This document shows positions 46,244-55,237 of a stretch of 64,000 bases of DNA, in pieces (the first letter of the stretch is position 1; each line of letters opens with the position of its first letter). The position numbers were made by a program, and so were the translations under genes. The DNA is from an uncultured cyanobacterium (lineage in GTDB: Bacteria > Cyanobacteriota > Cyanobacteriia > Cyanobacteriales > Cyanobacteriaceae), in NCBI GenBank assembly GCA_963749915.1, contig CAVVOP010000021.1, forward strand, positions 64,001 through 128,000, in the 5' to 3' direction. A model generated the notes under the pieces. It was given only the letters and a program-made list of their open reading frames with translations. It searched no databases and was not told the origin of the DNA.

Positions 46244-47200
46244 ATGAACCAACAAACCCTCAAAGCTTATCTCGATTTAATTCAAGGACTTTTGAGTTGT
46301 CCCAGAGGAGAAGAATGGATACTGCTAAGACAGAATGAAGAATTGGTTAATCCTGAACTAGTAGAAGTGATGGAACAAGTCGCCAGTCATTTAGCCATAG
46401 AAGGTCAAATCAAAGCAGCTAAGTATTTGCACAACTGGGCAGGGAAACTGCATCATATTTTGACAGAGAATGTTCCCACTCCCAAAAATAATAACGATAA
46501 AACCAAAGCCTATCTGGAACTTATCGAAGCCTTACTCAGTTCTCCCAAAGGTTCTGAAGAGGAAATTTTGGCAGCCCATCAGGAGTTAATCGGTCCAGAA
46601 TTAGTCAAGATCATGAAACAAGTCGCTAGTCAGATCGCAGCCGAAGGAGATCAAGAAAAAGCTAATTTGTTAAATAATTTGGCTACAGAGTTAAACAGCA
46701 CTTGGCTTAAAAACCATGAATTTCAACCGACTCTAAAAAAAGAGGTGGCTGCCGATCCTTGGTTAGAGGAGAATTCTCCACCAACACATCCATCAGAAAC
46801 AAAAACGGAAACAGAAACAAAAACAGAAATAGAAACCCAACCAACCGAAAATGAAATACCAGCGGTGGAAGAACCCGTAAGCCCATCTTCCGAACCGAAA
46901 ACTTCGAGGGAGGTACAACTGGCAGAACAGCTGGAGAAGATCGCCGATTCTTTAGCCAAGTTAGAAACCACCTTAGCTTCGCGACTGCAAGTATCAAACC
47001 CTTTATGGTATATGGATATTCTCGAAAAAGCCGAGACGGCCAACTGGATCTTAACCACTGATGAAATAGAACATTTAATCGGTATTAAACCCCAATGTCA
47101 TCACGAGGAGACTTCTTACCACAGAGGTAGCTGGATATTTATTAAAGCAGGAAAAATTGGCCCACAGACGGGCTGGCAAGTTAAGAAAGTTTCCGCCTAA
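46244..47200 (+). CDS. Hypothetical protein with duplicated N-terminal helical domain
   Basis: Two copies of KAYL.LI..LLS.P.G.E..L....EL..PELV..M.QVAS; acidic linker; coiled coil. Confidence 0.75.
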   Translation: MNQQTLKAYLDLIQGLLSCPRGEEWILLRQNEELVNPELVEVMEQVASHLAIEGQIKAAKYLHNWAGKLHHILTENVPTPKNNNDKTKAYLELIEALLSSPKGSEEEILAAHQELIGPELVKIMKQVASQIAAEGDQEKANLLNNLATELNSTWLKNHEFQPTLKKEVAADPWLEENSPPTHPSETKTETETKTEIETQPTENEIPAVEEPVSPSSEPKTSREVQLAEQLEKIADSLAKLETTLASRLQVSNPLWYMDILEKAETANWILTTDEIEHLIGIKPQCHHEETSYHRGSWIFIKAGKIGPQTGWQVKKVSA

Positions 47201-47641
47201 TCGGCTCAGGTACAAATAAATAATACATCTCTTTGTTTAACTCGTCGGTCTGGGGTGAACAATCTCTTTGTAATTACAATAATCACGTTTTGTTCTTTTA
47301 GAAGGGTCCTCAGGCTTTAGCTGTGCCGGGGTGCGATCGTTCAGAGTCAAGAACCTGAAAGGGTTATAAGACCTTATGGCGATCGCAAAAATATTAAGTG
47401 TTCCTCGATAATCTGTCAAATAAGCGAGAGAAGCTGGGCGGTCAGTCCTCAATCCATATCTCGCACTTCGGATTGTAGCTTTTAAGTTATTCCCCCAATA
47501 CTGCGAGGGATTTGAATAATTATGTGTTGTGACAAGGATAGGGAAGAGGGGGAAGCTTTCGGGTGTAGGTTTTTAATATTTGGGCGAAGGTGAGACTTGG
47601 AAGATGGGGAAGATGGGGAAGAGGGGGAAGAAAAATCCCAC

Positions 47642-47677
47642 ACTCCTCATTTGATCAAGACTCCTCATTTGATCAAG
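47642..47677. repeat. Perfect 18-bp tandem duplication ACTCCTCATTTGATCAAG x2
   Basis: Seen directly. Confidence 0.85.
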
Positions 47678-48064
47678 TTTTTCAGCTTAACCGAATTGAT
47701 AAGGGATAATAAAATTATTTTTGAGATTTTTTATACTTTGAGAATTCCTATGGTATAAGGGCCTCTAAAGATTTTAATGTGAATTAAAGTAACTAATTAT
47801 TATTATATGTTAACTTTGTGATTTCCCCTAAGATTATTAATTTAAAATGAGAAAGAGTGAAAGACAATATTAACTATTTGAGGGATTATTTTCCTGGTAA
47901 TAAAGGTAGATAAATGTGCAAAAAATGCTTAATACAATAATGTTAAAGTCTCCACCACAAACAGCTAACACAGCTAAAGCTCAATTTTCCTTCGGTCATT
48001 TAAATGTTAGCCCTCTACTTTTAAGTTATACATTATCAACTGTCAACTATCAACTGTTAAAACC

Positions 48065-48781
48065 ATGTCCGTGAATACATTAAAAATTGATGGTATTGAC
48101 GTAGCGGTAGAATCTGGTACATCAATATTAAAAGCCGCCCAAGAAGCGGGGATAAGGATTCCCACTCTCTGCCATTTTCAAGGGGTTTCCAATGTGGGAG
48201 CTTGTCGTATGTGTTTAGTGGAAATTAAAGGTAATTCTAATCTTGTATCGAGTTGCGTGACTGAGGCCCAAGAAGGGATGGAAGTTATTACTCGAACAGA
48301 GCAGTTACAAGAATATCGCAAAATGATTATAGAATTGCTTTTTGCTGAAGGTAATCATGTTTGTGCGGTATGTGTTGCTAACAATAATTGTCAACTGCAA
48401 GATATAGCAATTGAAGTGGGGATGGATCATACAAGGTTTAATTATCGTTACCCCCAAAGGGATGTTGATTTATCTCATCCGCAATTTGGCATTGATCATA
48501 ATCGCTGTATCCTCTGTACTAGATGCGTTCGAGTCTGTGCTGAAATTGAATCTGCCCATGTTTGGAATGTGGCATTTCGAGGGGCAGCGGCGAAAATCAT
48601 TAGTGGTTTGAATCAGCCTTGGGGAGAGGTATCCGCTTGTACTTCCTGCGGTAAATGTGTGGATGCTTGTCCTACGGGTAGTATTTTCCGTAAAGGTGAT
48701 ACCGTAGCGGAAACGGAAAAAGATCGTGATGAAATTGAATTTTTGAATAGAGCACGGGAGAAACATCAATGGACAAGATAA
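48065..48781 (+). CDS. hoxU: Bidirectional hydrogenase diaphorase subunit U
   Basis: IPTLCH, GACRMC, EGNHVCAVCVANNNC, CILCTRCVRVC, CTSCGKCVDACP. Confidence 0.96.
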   Translation: MSVNTLKIDGIDVAVESGTSILKAAQEAGIRIPTLCHFQGVSNVGACRMCLVEIKGNSNLVSSCVTEAQEGMEVITRTEQLQEYRKMIIELLFAEGNHVCAVCVANNNCQLQDIAIEVGMDHTRFNYRYPQRDVDLSHPQFGIDHNRCILCTRCVRVCAEIESAHVWNVAFRGAAAKIISGLNQPWGEVSACTSCGKCVDACPTGSIFRKGDTVAETEKDRDEIEFLNRAREKHQWTR

Positions 48782-49317
48782 GATTTGCAACGGTGTGGTT
48801 GGCTGGTTGTTCGGGTTGTCATATGTCATTCCTGGATCTAGATGAGTTTTTATTCGATGTTGCCGAGGCGGTGGATGTAGTTTATAGTCCTGTTGCTAGT
48901 GACATCAAAGAGTATCCCGACAATGTTGATATCTGTCTCGTGGAAGGTGCCATCGCCAATGAGGAAAATTTAAAATTACTATTGAAAGTAAGACAACGCA
49001 CTAAATTTTTAATTTCCTTCGGGGATTGTGCTGTAACTGCCAATGTGCCAGCTATGCGCAATATGTTAAACGGTACAGATCCAGTTTTAAAACGTTGCTA
49101 TTTAGAGTTAAGCGATGATTCGGGACAAATACCAAAAGACTCCGACATTGTACCGGAATTATTGGAAAAAGTACAGCCCATTCATCACCTGATAGATGTG
49201 GATTTATTCTTGCCGGGTTGCCCTCCTTCCGCCCAAAGAATCAAAGATGCCATCGCACCTCTGTTAAAAGGAGAAAGACCAGTCATGGAAGGGCGAGAAA
49301 TGATCAAATTTGGTTAA
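48769..49317 (+). CDS. hoxY: Bidirectional [NiFe] hydrogenase small subunit
   Basis: WLAGCSGCHMS, FGDCAV, PGCPP; overlaps the end of hoxU. Confidence 0.96.
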   Translation: MDKIRFATVWLAGCSGCHMSFLDLDEFLFDVAEAVDVVYSPVASDIKEYPDNVDICLVEGAIANEENLKLLLKVRQRTKFLISFGDCAVTANVPAMRNMLNGTDPVLKRCYLELSDDSGQIPKDSDIVPELLEKVQPIHHLIDVDLFLPGCPPSAQRIKDAIAPLLKGERPVMEGREMIKFG

Positions 49318-49362
49318 CATCAAAGACCATGATTAGAAATAGAAATCAACCTGAATTATGAT

Positions 49363-50112
49363 ATGGAAAATTCCACAGAATATATTACAACTCTTATTTC
49401 CTTACATCGGGGTTTAAAGCGTCAAGGACCTGGGGATGATAACTTATCTCATCAAATACTGAATAGTTTAAATTTACCAGTTCAACCAAAAATAGCTGAT
49501 CTAGGATGTGGAAGTGGAAGTGCATCCATATTACTAGCTCAGTTTTTTCATAGTCCAGTCATCGCCTTAGATATATCTGATTCCTTTCTGAAAGAGCTTA
49601 CAAATCGAGCTAAAATATTGAACCTAGATCATTTGATTACTCCTATTCAAGGAGATATGGCAAAGTTAGGCTGGTTGCCTAATTCTTTTGATTTATTTTG
49701 GTCTGAAGGGGCAGTATATAATATAGGGTTTGAAAAGGCTTTACATCTTTGGCGACCATTTTTAAAGGAAGGTGGCAAGGCAGTCATTTCCGAGATTAGC
49801 TGGTTTGTTCAAGATATTCCCGACAAACTTTTTGAATATTGGCACTCGATATATCCGAAAATAGCTACGGAGGAACAAAATATCTCTTTTGCCGAAACTG
49901 CCAATTTTAAAGTTCTTAACACTTATCGATTGTCTAGTCATTCTTGGTGGAAAAATTACTATAATCCCTTAAAAATAAATATAGAAAAATTTAATTCGAA
50001 CACTGATCCTATGAATCAATTAGTCATTAGTGAATTTGAGTCAGAAATGAATTTATTTAAAAAATATAGTGATTTCTATGGATATACTTTTTATGTTCTT
50101 CAAGCCTCTTAA
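49363..50112 (+). CDS. Class I SAM-dependent methyltransferase
   Basis: RQGPG, IADLGCGSG, FDLFWSEGAVYNIGF, YGYTFYV. Confidence 0.9.
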   Translation: MENSTEYITTLISLHRGLKRQGPGDDNLSHQILNSLNLPVQPKIADLGCGSGSASILLAQFFHSPVIALDISDSFLKELTNRAKILNLDHLITPIQGDMAKLGWLPNSFDLFWSEGAVYNIGFEKALHLWRPFLKEGGKAVISEISWFVQDIPDKLFEYWHSIYPKIATEEQNISFAETANFKVLNTYRLSSHSWWKNYYNPLKINIEKFNSNTDPMNQLVISEFESEMNLFKKYSDFYGYTFYVLQAS

Positions 50113-50204
50113 AAACTGAATAAGAGCCTTGATCACTTACCATAATTAAGATATTTGTAAAAAAAATAAGGATTATTTTAAATACTAATAATAAGGAGAT
50201 AAAA

Positions 50205-50846
50205 ATGCTTTTAGCCCTAGAAAAAATTAATGTTTTAGAAGGACAAACTCTTGTTATTAATGATGTCAATTGGCAACAGTTTGAGGAAATTTTATTAGAA
50301 TTAGGAGAACATCGCAATAGTAAAATCGCTTATTACGATCAAACTTTAGAAATTATGAGTCCATTACCAGAACACGAGAGCGATAAAGTTTTAATTACTA
50401 ATATTTTAGAAATTTTATTAGAAGAACTTGATATAGAATTTTGGAGTTTGGGTTCCACTACTTTTAAAAGCGAATTATTGCAAAAAGGACTAGAACCCGA
50501 TAACTGTTTTTACATTCAAAATGAAGCTAAAATTAGAGGTAAAAAAAGGATAGATTTAAGTATCGATCCTCCTCCTGATTTAGCCTTAGAAATTGACCTA
50601 ACTTCTCGTACTTATCCTAATATTTATTTAGCTTTAGGAGTTCTTGAATTATGGCGTTTTGAACAGAACAATTTACAAATAAATATTTTGGACAATGGGC
50701 AATATATTCAACAAGAATTTAGTCCTATTTTTCCAAATATTCCCATTAAAAAATTAATTCCTGAATATCTTTATAAGTGTAAAATAGAAGGAAGAAATAA
50801 AACGTTAAAAGCCTTTAGAAATCTGATTAAAGAATATATAAAATAG
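50205..50846 (+). CDS. Uma2 family putative endonuclease
   Basis: LEIMSPLPEHE, GSTT, EPDNCFY, PPPDLALEID, LGV.ELWR. Confidence 0.92.
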   Translation: MLLALEKINVLEGQTLVINDVNWQQFEEILLELGEHRNSKIAYYDQTLEIMSPLPEHESDKVLITNILEILLEELDIEFWSLGSTTFKSELLQKGLEPDNCFYIQNEAKIRGKKRIDLSIDPPPDLALEIDLTSRTYPNIYLALGVLELWRFEQNNLQINILDNGQYIQQEFSPIFPNIPIKKLIPEYLYKCKIEGRNKTLKAFRNLIKEYIK

Positions 50847-50903
50847 GAGCTTTACAAACAAGAGTTTCTGAAGTTTTAAAATTGTTAGAATAGGTAAAAA
50901 AAT

Positions 50904-52334
50904 ATGTCAAAAACTATTATCATTGATCCCGTTACCCGCATCGAAGGACACGCTAAAATATCCATTTATTTAGACGACAATGGACAAGTAAATGATGCTC
51001 GTTTTCATGTGGTAGAATTTCGGGGTTTTGAAAAATTTTGTGAAGGAAGACCAATGTTTGAAATGGCGGGAATTACCGCCCGAATTTGTGGAATTTGTCC
51101 TGTCAGCCATTTACTCGCTTCTGCGAAAACTGGGGACAAAATTTTAGGAGTAAAAATTCCTCCCGCAGGAGAAAAGTTACGACGGTTAATGAATTTAGCA
51201 CAATTAACTCAGTCTCACGCTCTTTCTTTTTTTCACCTTAGTAGCCCTGATTTTCTCTTGGGTTGGGACTCTAATCCTTCTACCCGTAACGTTTTTGGTT
51301 TGATGGCGGCTGATCCCGACTTAGCACGGGCAGGGATTCGTTTACGCGCTTTTGGACAAAATATCATTGAATTACTCGGAGCAAGAAAAATTCATGCGGC
51401 ATGGGCAGTCCCCGGGGGAGTGCGATCGCCGCTTACTCCGGAAAATCGTCAATGGATTGAGGATAATCTGCCGGAAGCTAAGCAAACCACAGAATTAGCC
51501 TTAAATCTCTTTAAAAGGCTCTTAGATAGGGAATTAACCACGGAAATCAACGTATTTGGCAACTTTGATTCTTTGTTTATGAGTTTGGTTGCCCCGAATG
51601 GTAATTGGGAACATTATGGGGGACATTTGCGTTTCGTTGATAGTCAGGGTAACATCGTCGCTGATGGCTTGAGTGAAGATAATTACAACGACTTTTTGGG
51701 GGAAGCGGTAGAAAATTGGTCGTATCTCAAATTCCCCTACTATAGTCCTTTGGGCTATCCTGATGGTATTTATCGAGTTGGTCCTTTGGCACGCTTAAAT
51801 GTCTGCGATCGCATCGGTACACCCCAAGCAGATCAAGAATTATGGGAATTTCGCCATCGGGCAGGAGGGCGTATAGCTACTTCTTCATTCTTCTATCATT
51901 ACGCTCGACTAGTTGAAATTGTCGCTTGTTTAGAGGCGATCGAGAACTTGATAAACGATGCTGACATTTTGTCAACCAGAGTACGTGCGGAGGCAGGAAT
52001 CAACTATTTAGAAGGCATTGGGGTAAGTGAAGCACCCAGAGGCACACTGTTTCACCACTACCAAGTGGATGACAATGGCTTAATCAAAAAGGTAAACCTA
52101 ATTATTGCCACTGGACACAATAACCTTGCCATGAATAAAACCGTCACCCAAATCGCTAAACACTATATTAACAGTACGGACATTTCCGAAGCTATGTTAA
52201 ACCGTGTAGAGGCGGGAATTAGAGCATTTGATCCCTGTTTGAGTTGTTCCACTCATGCCATCGGACAAATGCCATTACACATCGAATTAGTGGATTGTGA
52301 GGGGAAAATTATCAAGGAAATTTATAAAAATTAA
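50904..52334 (+). CDS. hoxH: Bidirectional [NiFe] hydrogenase large subunit (group 3d)
   Basis: TRIEGH, RGFE, L1 [19 protein letters not shown]2 DPCLSCSTH plus cleavable C-terminal tail. Confidence 0.97.
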
Positions 52335-52421
52335 TTGACAAATAATCAGGTTTGTAGTGAACTCTTGAGGGCAAAAAAAGCCTCAAGCTTTTACTGCGAA
52401 ACTTATATAGGAGTCAAAATT

Positions 52422-52679
52422 ATGATCAAAGAAAACTTATATTTATGTATGGGTTCGGCCTGTCATCAACTGGGGGTTTATGAAGTTTTACCTAAGCTAC
52501 AATCTTTGATTAAGAAACATAATCTTAACAGTAAAATTGAATTAAAGGGATCATTTTGTTTAGAAAGTTGTAGCTCAGGAATTGTGATGAAATTTAGGGA
52601 TAAACACTTTGTTGGCATCAGTCCTCAGAATTTAGAAGATAAATTTGTGAAAGAAATATTACCCATGATTAAAAAATAA
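52422..52679 (+). CDS. Thioredoxin-like [2Fe-2S] ferredoxin (HfsA-like / NuoE C-domain)
   Basis: CMGSAC (C-x4-C) and FCLESC (C-x3-C); 85 aa from an ATG with AGGAG RBS. Confidence 0.88.
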   Translation: MIKENLYLCMGSACHQLGVYEVLPKLQSLIKKHNLNSKIELKGSFCLESCSSGIVMKFRDKHFVGISPQNLEDKFVKEILPMIKK

Positions 52680-52709
52680 AAATAGATAATAAAAATTTAA
52701 TAATTAAAT

Positions 52710-53210
52710 ATGTTGGAAAGTAGCCAAAATCATCTTTATCAATTATTATGGGAATATGACCCTAACGCCTTAATTGCCACAGATTCTGAATTAATAATTA
52801 AATTAGTAAATCCATCTTTTTGTCAACTATTTAAAATAGAAAATACTGAGATAATTGGTCAATTGGCCATCGATATATTAGGAAATATTGAGCATATAAA
52901 AGAGGCATGGGAAAAAAATCAGGTAATAAAAAATAGAGAGACAGAATATTTAAAACATAATATTATTGTTAAAGAATTTATTTTTCCTATTCAAGAAGAA
53001 AATTTTATTTTGTGCATTATGACGGATATAACCGCTGAAATACGGCAACAGAAAGAATTAAAAGAAATGCAGGAAGAAATGATCAATAAAGTGAATAAAG
53101 TTGTCCATAATCAAATGAAAGTTGCCCAAGAAATAGCAGGATTATTAGGAGAAACCACCGCAGAAACTAAAGTTACTTTATTTAAACTGTTAGAACTTTT
53201 TAACAAATAA
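52710..53210 (+). CDS. Stand-alone PAS protein with HydS/HfsB-type C-terminal helix
   Basis: DPNALIATD..IKLVNPSFCQLF..IIGQ (PAS), DIT, then VNKVVHNQMKVAQEIAGLLGETTAETKVTL. Confidence 0.85.
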   Translation: MLESSQNHLYQLLWEYDPNALIATDSELIIKLVNPSFCQLFKIENTEIIGQLAIDILGNIEHIKEAWEKNQVIKNRETEYLKHNIIVKEFIFPIQEENFILCIMTDITAEIRQQKELKEMQEEMINKVNKVVHNQMKVAQEIAGLLGETTAETKVTLFKLLELFNK

Positions 53211-53263
53211 CTATTTAGTCTCTTATTTATTGTTAATTTTTTATTGTTTATGTAACTAAACTT

Positions 53264-54430
53264 ATGATAGAAGATAATTTTTTCGATATTTATTATTATA
53301 GTTTAAATAAACAAAATGAAGAATTATGTGGTGATCAAGTAAAATTTACTAAAACGGAAACAAAAAGTACCATCGTACTTTCAGATGGCTTAGGAAGCGG
53401 TGTTAAAGCTAGTATTTTAGCCACTTTAACCACCGAAATACTAATTACGATGCTCGATGCAGATTTGCCCCTCAAAGAAGTCATCGAAACCATTGTTGGC
53501 ACCTTACCCATTTGTCAAGTAAGAAATATTGCCTATGCAACTTTTACTATTATTAGCCTTGATCACATTACCAATAAATTTCATGTAATTAACTTTGATA
53601 ATCCTCCTATTTTTCTTCTAAAAAGGGGGATTATTGTACCCTTGCAACATCAAACTGAACAAATATTAAACAAAAAAATTAACTCCTGTCAAGGCCTCTT
53701 AGAAAGAGGCGATTTTTTAGGGGCGGCGAGTGATGGAATTCTCTATGCCGGTTTAGGAAATACCATGAATTTTGGTTGGGGTTGGGAAAATATTGCTAAA
53801 TTTATGGAAAATATTTTTCGCAATAAAGCCACTAATTCTCGTTATATTATTGAGCAAATTATTAATGAAACTAAAAAATTATACTGTGATCATATTGGCG
53901 ACGATGCCACTTTTGTCGGGGTATATATTCGTAAACCTAAACCGTTGATGATTTTTACAGGACCTCCATTAGATGTTACCAGAGATGAAGAATATGCGGA
54001 ACAATTATTGAGTTTTCCCGGCAGAAAAATTATTTGTGGAGGCACCACTGGTAATATTGTCGCCAATTATATGGGAGAAACCATCGAAATGGATATTATG
54101 ACGATGAGTAAAGAATTGCCACCCATTGGTAAACTGAAAGAAATTGATTTAGTTACCGAGGGAATTTTAACTATTTCTAAAGCAAAAGAAGTATTAATTA
54201 AATGTAAATTTGATATTACTAGATTACCTACTATCAAAAATGGGGCGGTATTATTAGCTAGAGAAATTTTAGAAGCTGACTCAATTTATTTCTTAGTTGG
54301 ACAACAAATTAATGAATTTTATCAAAATCCTTTGTTACCAAAAAATATATCTATTCGTCGTAGTTTAATAGAAGATTTAGTACAGCTTTTACGCAACCAT
54401 CAAAAACAAATTATTCTTGAATATTGTTAA
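53264..54430 (+). CDS. SpoIIE/PP2C-family Ser/Thr phosphatase, HfsC-like
   Basis: ELCGD, LSDGLGSGVKASILA, YATFT, SDG, GDDAT; extra C-domain FTGPP..KIICGGTT..DLVTEGILT. Confidence 0.9.
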   Translation: MIEDNFFDIYYYSLNKQNEELCGDQVKFTKTETKSTIVLSDGLGSGVKASILATLTTEILITMLDADLPLKEVIETIVGTLPICQVRNIAYATFTIISLDHITNKFHVINFDNPPIFLLKRGIIVPLQHQTEQILNKKINSCQGLLERGDFLGAASDGILYAGLGNTMNFGWGWENIAKFMENIFRNKATNSRYIIEQIINETKKLYCDHIGDDATFVGVYIRKPKPLMIFTGPPLDVTRDEEYAEQLLSFPGRKIICGGTTGNIVANYMGETIEMDIMTMSKELPPIGKLKEIDLVTEGILTISKAKEVLIKCKFDITRLPTIKNGAVLLAREILEADSIYFLVGQQINEFYQNPLLPKNISIRRSLIEDLVQLLRNHQKQIILEYC

Positions 54431-54625
54431 ATAAATTTGGTCGTGAAACAAAAAATTGTTAGCCATTTAACCTTTTTACTTCAGAAGAGCCGCACCCTTC
54501 TTCATTTCTATCCTATCCTACCCCATCAGATAAACTAATCAGTCTTATTCGTCTTATATTATCATCCAAACCATAAAGTTCAGTGAGTATTTCATATTGA
54601 TTTTAATTTTAGTTTTGCAATAGGT

Positions 54626-55237
54626 CTATTTAATCGATTTCAAAACAAAATCCCTGACTAAGTGCATTTCGGCGGGGATAATTTCATGGGCGATGTCAAA
54701 TTCTTTGTATTCTACACAAACCCCTACACCTTCTAATTTTCGTTTTGCCTCTTGGGCGGTATGAATAGGGACAACAGGATCAAGTTTTCCATGACAAATT
54801 AACGTAGGGGGAAACGGATTTCTGTCAGGGGTGGGTTCAAAATGTAGGTAACCGCTCATGCTAACGACCCCAGCAACAGGTAACTGTAATCCTACATCTA
54901 AACTCATCGCTCCTCCCTGAGAAAATCCCCCAACGATGGTTTTCGATAAAGGTATTTCTGTTATATCTTCTAGGGATAACAACCATTGGTAAAACTGATC
55001 CAAACTGGCTTCTATTCCTTCATTCTGATTTTCTAAAGCGTACCACGCCCTGCCACCGGGGACTTGATAATGTGCAAAAGGAGCATTGGGAAACAAATAT
55101 AAACAAGAGGGTAAATTTAACATGGAAGTAAGGGCGGTCAAATCATGATAATTAGCTCCCCAACCATGCAACAACACGAATGAAAATTCGGGTTTTTGCT
55201 CATTTTCGGGAGCAATGGAAATAACATCAAGATTCAT
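54626..55237 (-). CDS. Phospholipase/carboxylesterase (alpha/beta hydrolase)
   Basis: LHGWGAN, GFSQGG, HGKLDPVV, HEI. Confidence 0.92.
   Translation of the reverse strand: MNLDVISIAPENEQKPEFSFVLLHGWGANYHDLTALTSMLNLPSCLYLFPNAPFAHYQVPGGRAWYALENQNEGIEASLDQFYQWLLSLEDITEIPLSKTIVGGFSQGGAMSLDVGLQLPVAGVVSMSGYLHFEPTPDRNPFPPTLICHGKLDPVVPIHTAQEAKRKLEGVGVCVEYKEFDIAHEIIPAEMHLVRDFVLKSIK

Follow-up and report, generated by a model that had tools for sequence, protein, structure and literature searches.

The window described here is a stretch of 64,000 nucleotides from the genome of an uncultured cyanobacterium of the family Cyanobacteriaceae. It carries, 3′ of hoxH and all on the + strand, a small Fe-S protein gene, a PAS-tail gene and a phosphatase gene, which we call the trio. 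Homology shows that the trio corresponds to a cassette of a [2Fe-2S] protein (Fd), the sensory [FeFe]-hydrogenase HydS and a phosphatase, minus the H-cluster and Fe-S domains of HydS. In cyanobacteria the three genes are retained or lost as a set, and they are confined to genomes that have the bidirectional hydrogenase Hox. We consider it somewhat probable that the trio acts in dark fermentation as a phosphatase switch, gated by redox state, at the branch between H2 and ethanol, serving NAD(H)-linked hydrogenase metabolism.

The first gene (52422..52679) encodes an HfsA-like, stand-alone thioredoxin-like [2Fe-2S] protein of 85 amino acids. The second (52710..53210) encodes a protein of 166 amino acids with a PAS domain (residues ~8–109) followed by a helical tail, a predicted free C-terminus of HydS/HfsB. 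The third (53264..54430) encodes an HfsC-like protein of 388 amino acids, in which a PPM/SpoIIE phosphatase domain (residues 1–225) is followed by a C-terminal alpha/beta domain (residues 226–388). The trio follows hoxH (50904..52334, + strand; PF00374), which encodes the 476-residue large subunit of a group 3d bidirectional [NiFe]-hydrogenase, and the successive intergenic gaps are 87, 30 and 53 bp. These open reading frames, their lengths, motifs and spacing were re-derived exactly as in the original prediction, which had been made from the letters of the window.

The PAS protein matches PAS_9 over the Pfam cut-off, and its tail motif (QMKVAQEIAG..) begins at residue 135. The tail contains the invariant pattern Q-x-I-A-x-L-L-G-E, and its invariant residues are kept in 112 aligned rows and are common to HydS tails. 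The protein aligns to the C-terminus of longer homologues, which extend a median of 4 residues past the tail, and 118 of the 120 best longer homologues carry the [FeFe] domain PF02906. Judged by this alignment, the PAS protein is the HydS/HfsB C-terminus as a free protein. Pfam gave no match to PF02906, Fer4 or PF04060 in the 166 residues, which hold just two Cys columns. When a full HydS was used as query against the window's genome, the match was limited to residues 412–562. No match to PF02906 was obtained in this genome, which is 100% complete, and as for the [FeFe] maturases, HydG had no match, HydF gave only GTPase-domain matches under the cut-off and HydE was not searched. The original prediction of a module lacking its [FeFe] domain is thus borne out at the locus and extends to the genome.

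The short PAS form also has conserved residues of its own. W14 is present in 70 of 70 short forms, D17 in 68 and C38 in 69, whereas the corresponding counts among 35 HydS tails are 0, 0 and 1; the bearers share ancestry. These three positions mark a candidate new input surface on the PAS domain. A different arrangement is seen at one locus (L153:5153-10190), which has two H-cluster-type domains, two Fd genes and one free PAS-tail gene. Here a tail without a PAS core sits immediately before the phosphatase, which suggests that the tail is a movable output unit.

The four cysteines of Fd (residues 9, 14, 46 and 50) form the pattern C-x4-C-x31-C-x3-C and are invariant in all 52 aligned relatives. 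A single-sequence Pfam search gave a weak match to PF01257 (18.9 bits, under the cut-off of 24.8), and the best solved match in a profile search is the C-terminal domain of Thermotoga HydA (7p5h_A, residues 568–642, E 1e-16), followed by HydC/NuoE. By ligand pattern and family similarity, Fd is a thioredoxin-like ferredoxin of NuoE type with a predicted [2Fe-2S] cluster.

The phosphatase gives a SpoIIE match over the Pfam cut-off at residues 34–220, and D24, D41, D157, D213 and D214 are invariant in 112 rows. Its structure model, with a pLDDT (predicted local distance difference test) score of 88.5, matches SpoIIE 5ucg with a Z-score of 25.2 and a root-mean-square deviation (rmsd) of 2.7 over 215 aligned residues. 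In this model the protein has a PPM fold with an intact metal site, and it is a predicted Ser/Thr phosphatase. The protein starts at the catalytic domain, with only 18 residues ahead of the first aligned motif and no N-terminal regulatory linker, and invariant residues are present in the alpha1/alpha2 region. In homologue searches and in the phosphatase tree, both the PAS protein and the phosphatase side with HydS-operon proteins and not with generic RsbU/RsbP proteins, in agreement with the original prediction. The closest named relatives of the phosphatase come from Geminocystis (91–95%). A Geminocystis genome also contains a second, partial phosphatase copy of 216 amino acids (L032:14089-14739), 91% identical and located 3 kb from the full copy.

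The C-terminal domain of the phosphatase bears the motifs TGPP at 232, CGGTT at 258 and LVTEG at 296, and among the best 150 of 782 hits it was found only in this architecture or as fragments. It is modelled with a pLDDT of 95 as an alpha/beta domain having two invariant glycine-rich loops. Fold comparison showed a middling resemblance to domains of the molybdopterin-oxidoreductase type, with a best Z-score of 9.5 (NuoG, rmsd 3.9 over 122 aligned residues; FhcB, rmsd 3.2 over 114), and to MGS-like domains, with a Z-score of 7.0. Foldseek returned nothing at E<=0.001, and HHalign probabilities are weak (10.6 for NBD_C and 8 for MGS). Pfam has no match in the window protein, while 4 of 121 members match NBD_C with E-values of 0.008 or weaker; a PDB sequence search gave none and the Atlas gave unnamed clusters only. 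We would guess from the model that this domain binds a phosphate-bearing ligand.

For the distribution of the trio, 401 evenly sampled genomes of the class were analysed, among them that of the window. Of these, 31 have the phosphatase and 135 have HoxH, and HoxH is present in all 31 phosphatase genomes. Within families, co-occurrence with HoxH is 30 of 30 against 17.1 of 30 expected under independence (eleven families concerned), and with one genome per family the association has P ~1e-4; kin are not independent, so these statistics are upper bounds on its strength. With the window's genome counted apart, 30 genomes have the phosphatase, and PAS protein and Fd turned up in 29 of them and in none of 38 chosen negatives. 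The trio is intact in 30 genomes and follows hoxH in 28 of them, so that the recurrent linkage to hoxH which the original prediction had proposed to survey does exist. The Fd gene lies at most 4 kb downstream of hoxH in 28 of 30 genomes, and at most 500 bp in 25. The phosphatase gene lies within 5 kb of hoxH in 27 of 31, and two of the other four are at contig ends. Intact frames with 62–95% identity occur in eleven or more families, and the named carriers include Arthrospira platensis PCC 7345, Planktothrix, Phormidium, Geitlerinema, Baaleninema, Leptolyngbya and Coleofasciculaceae. At many loci hoxW-like, hypA and hypB (hypF) genes lie 3′ of the phosphatase, and hcp is found in several of the same operons. 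The labels hoxW, hcp and Rex (below) are assumed by us from motifs and position. That of hcp also follows PMC2674450.

The exception among the phosphatase genomes (G434; L199:743-3281 on G434:C64) has a decayed phosphatase remnant between hoxH and a hoxW-like gene; neither Fd nor the PAS protein was found in that genome, a case of loss still under way. Within the window's own family, all three genes persist, though dispersed, in four genomes, while G230, of the same genus and 99% complete, and G077 had no match to hoxH or to any trio gene. A HoxH tree of 68 hand-picked rows (27 trio-bearing, 30 trio-less, 1 remnant and 10 non-cyanobacterial) places all 27 trio-bearing rows in one clade of 49 (Shimodaira–Hasegawa-type support, SH, 99). 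The earliest branches of this clade have the trio, and 21 trio-less rows are nested in it, many with hoxH directly before hoxW. The simplest reading of the tree is that the trio was present at the base of the clade and has been lost repeatedly, although repeated gain within the clade is possible. In the same tree, three verrucomicrobial HoxH (L283–L285) fall inside a second cyanobacterial HoxH group (support 93 and 83), which might reflect transfer of hoxEFUYH between phyla.

The short form is not confined to cyanobacteria. An H-cluster-less trio is present in Chloroflexota, Verrucomicrobiota, Desulfobacteraceae, Armatimonadota, Tepidisphaeraceae and Omnitrophota. A quick tree of PAS tails, for which HydS rows were picked by similarity to the query, places all 44 short PAS rows in one group (SH 100) and the 30 cyanobacterial rows in one group inside it (94), with the HydS tails of sister classes far off. 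A FastTree phylogeny of the phosphatase concurs and hints at a second independent short lineage. Two loci with short PAS forms (L171 and L188) have phosphatases that fall among the HydS-linked ones in this tree, which suggests a second, independent loss of the H-cluster part. Among 121 Anaerolineae genomes, the short form was found in the central genome of the sample alone and longer frames in 15.

Full cassettes, with Fd, a 570-residue protein and phosphatase in the same order, are found at a Lachnospiraceae locus and at nine loci of non-photosynthetic sister classes (families f34 and f37, which are probably Gastranaerophilales), and at several of these loci another [FeFe] enzyme is next. Vertical descent of the trio from the HydS of the sister classes was considered and rejected; their PAS tails and phosphatases are 19–39% identical to the cyanobacterial ones and far from them in the trees. 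A loss of the H-cluster specific to cyanobacteria was rejected as well, the cyanobacteria being one branch of a wider short-form clade.

Outside cyanobacteria, 14 of 15 short-form genomes have a HoxH-like gene, at 49–67%, and 12 of 15 gave no PF02906 match. Seven of ten such genomes that were fetched have a contiguous hoxEFUYH, distant from the trio. The short form is also found beside [FeFe] HydCBA, at an Omnitrophota locus (L056) and at the metagenome loci L129, L132 and L171. The extent of the short-form clade, these HydCBA neighbours and the existence of copies with no adjacent Fd gene indicate that loss of the sensor domain either preceded the cyanobacteria or took place outside them. What stays constant is the PAS tail with the phosphatase, and the common partner is a hydrogenase, of either metal type, that is linked to NAD(H). 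The original prediction had supposed that the sensor was dropped and the output re-wired to the cyanobacterial group 3d enzyme. For the same reasons, this part of it is not supported in the form in which it was put; a form that also stands beside [FeFe] HydCBA is not a [NiFe]-specific rewiring. A Rex-like gene neighbours short and full cassettes at 12 loci outside cyanobacteria (e.g. L135:6944-7642), and no match to it was found in the window's genome.

Presence of the trio goes along with that of adhE, which was found in 28 of 30 trio-bearing Hox genomes against 36 of 104 trio-less ones, plus the remnant genome (all 135 searched). Within six mixed families the association has P ~2e-4. The original prediction had not anticipated this association. 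In two families adhE lies between hoxH and the Fd gene (G547:C1:2594743-2597334 and G490:C10:35773-38364), and in G422 it lies directly 3′ of hoxH. Pyruvate:ferredoxin oxidoreductase (PFOR) is present in 30 of 30 trio genomes and in 36 of the 50 trio-less ones tested out of 104; part of the adhE signal is therefore attributable to lifestyle. In one trio-less genus, the adhE matches of G443, G465, G475, G545 and G551 contain one or two internal stops, which may be due to match-end effects or decay.

RNA data for the Arthrospira locus come from four Arthrospira-type runs of four studies. In three of them a single contig of ~10.6 kb spans hoxE to past hoxW, the trio included, and in the fourth the locus is covered in pieces. 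The contigs are unstranded, do not demonstrate a single transcript and also span an opposite-strand gene, and low cover past 13.2 kb of L059 was not counted as a transcript end. These data hint that the trio is expressed in Arthrospira-type strains.

Genetic data on the full cassette come from Thermoanaerobacterium saccharolyticum (PMC5707799). Deletion of hfsA or hfsB leads to more ethanol, adhE transcripts and alcohol dehydrogenase activity but not aldehyde dehydrogenase activity, whereas deletion of hfsC or hfsD does not give that rise, and the hfsA/hfsB effect needs hfsC/hfsD. The authors suspect post-transcriptional control, and the hfs regulatory cascade is reported to lack an identified mediator. 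It has also been reported that in PPM phosphatases an N-terminal coiled coil exerts control by way of the alpha1/alpha2 switch helices (PMC12143880).

We propose that the trio would work in three steps. The invariant tail of the PAS protein probably binds the phosphatase in trans, most plausibly at the alpha1/alpha2 switch helices, and gates it. This follows from the lack of a linker on the phosphatase, the invariant alpha1/alpha2 residues and the constant presence, ahead of the phosphatase gene, of a gene ending in an invariant helical tail. The opposite phenotypes of hfsA/hfsB and hfsC/hfsD deletions suggest that the phosphatase is restrained rather than activated. The input, on which we are evenly divided, may be the redox state of the ferredoxin/NAD(H) pool feeding Hox. 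It would be delivered through the [2Fe-2S] protein, through the face of the PAS domain on which Trp, Asp and Cys are newly conserved, or through both, and the C-terminal domain of the phosphatase may add a phosphate-bearing ligand as a further input. The output, put forward with a similarly balanced degree of belief, would be the dephosphorylation of some enzyme or regulator, with a shift of electrons between H2 (Hox) and ethanol (AdhE) as its result.

A more far-reaching version is tentative, and we would sooner doubt it than accept it. The main cyanobacterial Hox clade may ancestrally have had its own phospho-signalling unit, since lost in laboratory models, in the form of an oxygen-tolerant, H-cluster-free HydS. 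Here the [2Fe-2S] protein and the Cys-bearing PAS domain would read Hox or the electron pool, and the tail, gating the phosphatase in trans, would set the split between H2 and ethanol. If true, cyanobacterial hydrogen metabolism would here have its first post-translational control by phosphorylation, and the output mechanism of all group C sensory hydrogenases would be exposed.

Several observations weigh against a switch for the H2/ethanol branch. No adhE match was found in the trio genomes G158 and G433, nor in G238. Related genomes are not independent, and a strongly fermentative lifestyle may be what adhE, PFOR and the trio all indicate. Of the 135 Hox genomes, 104 do without the trio, and adhE is present in 36 of these, so neither pathway requires it. 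The genetic data from Thermoanaerobacterium were obtained with the full HydS, and hfsD and polarity confound them. Outside cyanobacteria the trio usually does not adjoin hydrogenase genes, and at seven loci (L126, L129, L132, L133, L136, L137 and L146) no Fd gene lies alongside. Neither a kinase nor a STAS gene turned up repeatedly among the neighbours of 112 loci; elsewhere in the window's genome there are five short STAS frames. In a profile comparison, the tail of the PAS protein scored 10.2 against 17 RsbU-type linkers, inside the range of shuffled controls (6.9–12.9). Homology of the tail to the RsbU/RsbP linker was accordingly rejected, though the two may be functionally analogous.

These observations leave room for other functions. 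The trio could be a genuine sensory circuit for H2, with Hox taking over the receptor role of the H-cluster; the [2Fe-2S] protein would dock on HoxEF(U) and signal H2-driven reduction to the PAS protein. The strict dependence of the trio on hoxH in cyanobacteria would fit such a circuit, as would the HoxH-like genes and missing PF02906 of most short-form genomes elsewhere and the resemblance of Fd to the thioredoxin-like domain of HydA/HydC. In Anaerolineaceae (L045, L049, L051, L058 and L111), genes for a histidine kinase, a LuxR response regulator, a CBS protein and nuoE-like and nuoF-like proteins are followed directly by the trio, with hoxYH elsewhere, and the position of the trio 3′ of the nuoE/nuoF-like genes points the same way. 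However, a receptor role of Hox is hard to reconcile with short forms that accompany [FeFe] HydCBA or have no adjacent Fd gene, and we regard this circuit as unlikely. We give no better chance to a fermentation switch that responds to anoxia, oxygen or nitric oxide in general and, though encoded in the hox operon, neither reads nor controls Hox, with the labile [2Fe-2S] cluster or the PAS cysteine as sensor. The near-restriction of C38 to short forms, the full fermentation kit (PFOR and AdhE) of trio genomes and hcp in several of the same operons speak for it. But G230 and G077 retain adhE without hoxH or the trio, and this ties the trio to Hox and not to fermentation at large.

A role outside signalling appears slightly less probable still. 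The trio, sitting in a slot between hoxH and hoxW-hypAB, might aid Hox maturation, or Fd might be an extra electron carrier, and the hoxW-like, hypA and hypB (hypF) genes after the phosphatase at many loci are in line with this. However, the PPM metal site and the PAS domain are intact, the same trio stands beside [FeFe] enzymes having different maturases, and most Hox operons function without it. It is very improbable that the trio is inert and disappearing, carried along when a hox operon moved horizontally. Its patchy distribution (30 of 135 Hox genomes) and the decayed remnant could be read in this way, but frames are intact across families at the identities given above, the catalytic residues are invariant, and all three genes were retained after dispersal round the chromosome.

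The closest known system to such a redox-gated phosphatase switch is hfsABCD of T. saccharolyticum and T. thermosaccharolyticum (PMC5707799, PMC11837493), described as having a small Fe-S protein, a PAS-bearing protein and a serine-phosphatase-like protein in the same order beside a hydrogenase. The link to adhE is common to hfs genetics and the trio. In contrast to hfsABCD, the window's PAS protein has no H-cluster or Fe-S domains, there is no HfsD-type [FeFe] enzyme, and the partner is a group 3d [NiFe] enzyme in an oxygenic phototroph. Full-architecture loci of this type (L078, L090 and L091) are homologous to all three window proteins, and the order is the same in L078 and L090–L097. The correspondence to hfsA-hfsB-hfsC and the HydS cassette, as originally predicted, therefore stands for homology and order in Fd–HydS–phosphatase loci; for the named T. 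saccharolyticum HfsA, HfsB and HfsC, the likeness rests on architecture and the descriptions in PMC11837493, not on their sequences.

Group C (M2f) HydS of Thermotoga maritima and Ruminococcus albus (PMC13104023, PMC11837493) shares with the trio a PAS domain, a terminal tail and an adjacent phosphatase. Unlike these, the window protein has none of the domains by which the group is defined, namely the H-cluster domain and the N-terminal and C-terminal [4Fe-4S] domains, and has its own conserved W/D/C. By its domain content the trio is not a member of the group C hydrogenases but would work like their output half. RsbU, RsbP and SpoIIE (PMC12143880) have in common with it the PPM fold, metal ligands, alpha1/alpha2 invariants and an RsbP-like logic of PAS, coil and phosphatase. 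However, in the window the sensor and phosphatase are separate proteins, with no N-terminal linker, an extra C-terminal domain and no STAS or kinase neighbour. HoxBC-HoxJ-HoxA of Ralstonia eutropha (via PMC5707799) also couples a hydrogenase to phospho-signalling, as proposed here, but through a dedicated sensory hydrogenase, a histidine kinase and a response regulator, none of which is in the trio. The control of Synechocystis PCC 6803 Hox by LexA, AbrB1 and AbrB2 (PMC4264147) concerns the same enzyme as the trio's partner.

No description of the H-cluster-less trio, alone or in hox operons, was found in full-text literature searches, a scope outside which subscription papers, theses and supplements fall. 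The available parts of PMC2674450, PMC3858816, PMC5186783 and PMC4918915 do not mention it, and the open reading frames of the Lyngbya hox region in PMC2674450 and PMC3858816 were considered and found not to be this trio. PMC5186783 reports no [FeFe] enzymes in 130 cyanobacterial genomes. In S. elongatus and PCC 7002, hoxW is stated to come immediately after hoxH (PMC3858816), and the Synechocystis operon is listed without trio-like genes (PMC4264147); hox operons of model strains that have no such genes would explain why the trio was overlooked. The trio suggests a level of Hox control that model strains lack and that is present in relatives of Arthrospira, Planktothrix, Phormidium, Geitlerinema and Leptolyngbya. 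The part played by the C-terminal domains of sensory [FeFe]-hydrogenases was called untested in 2026 (PMC13104023). A natural three-protein version without the oxygen-sensitive H-cluster would be far easier to purify, making the gating of the phosphatase by the tail, and its substrate, directly testable. By analogy with hfsB deletions, the trio is a possible handle on H2 versus ethanol yield.

The hox genes of the window's genome are split, a feature that the original prediction does not mention. The window carries hoxU and hoxY (48065..49317, + strand; HoxU matches NF005745 over the cut-off, and PF01058 is also matched), then an S-adenosylmethionine-dependent methyltransferase gene and a Uma2-family gene (49363..50846, + strand; both from Pfam), then hoxH. 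The hoxEF genes are on contig C33, hoxW-like, hypA and hypB genes on C22 and hypF on C5; Pfam gave no match at 1e-5 for the hoxW-like frame. All five HoxEFUYH subunits, the nickel-binding motifs (in HoxH, R-x-C-G-x-C at 60 and D-P-C-x-x-C-x-x-H at 443) and maturation genes were found. The next gene past the phosphatase is an esterase on the opposite strand. Insertion of the methyltransferase and Uma2 genes between hoxY and hoxH was seen at none of the related loci. A scan of positions 47200–54700 found no terminator-like site on the + strand between hoxH and the start of the phosphatase, and promoter-like sites over the whole scanned range are at chance level (32 against 28.2 ± 5.1). Upstream of hoxU lies a long non-coding stretch in which an 18-bp tandem duplication and short purine-rich repeats can be made out by eye (~47640–47680). 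G+C content at third codon positions is low in the methyltransferase and Uma2 genes (0.25 and 0.17) and also in the trio, at 0.22–0.28 against 0.30–0.38 for hoxU, hoxY and hoxH.

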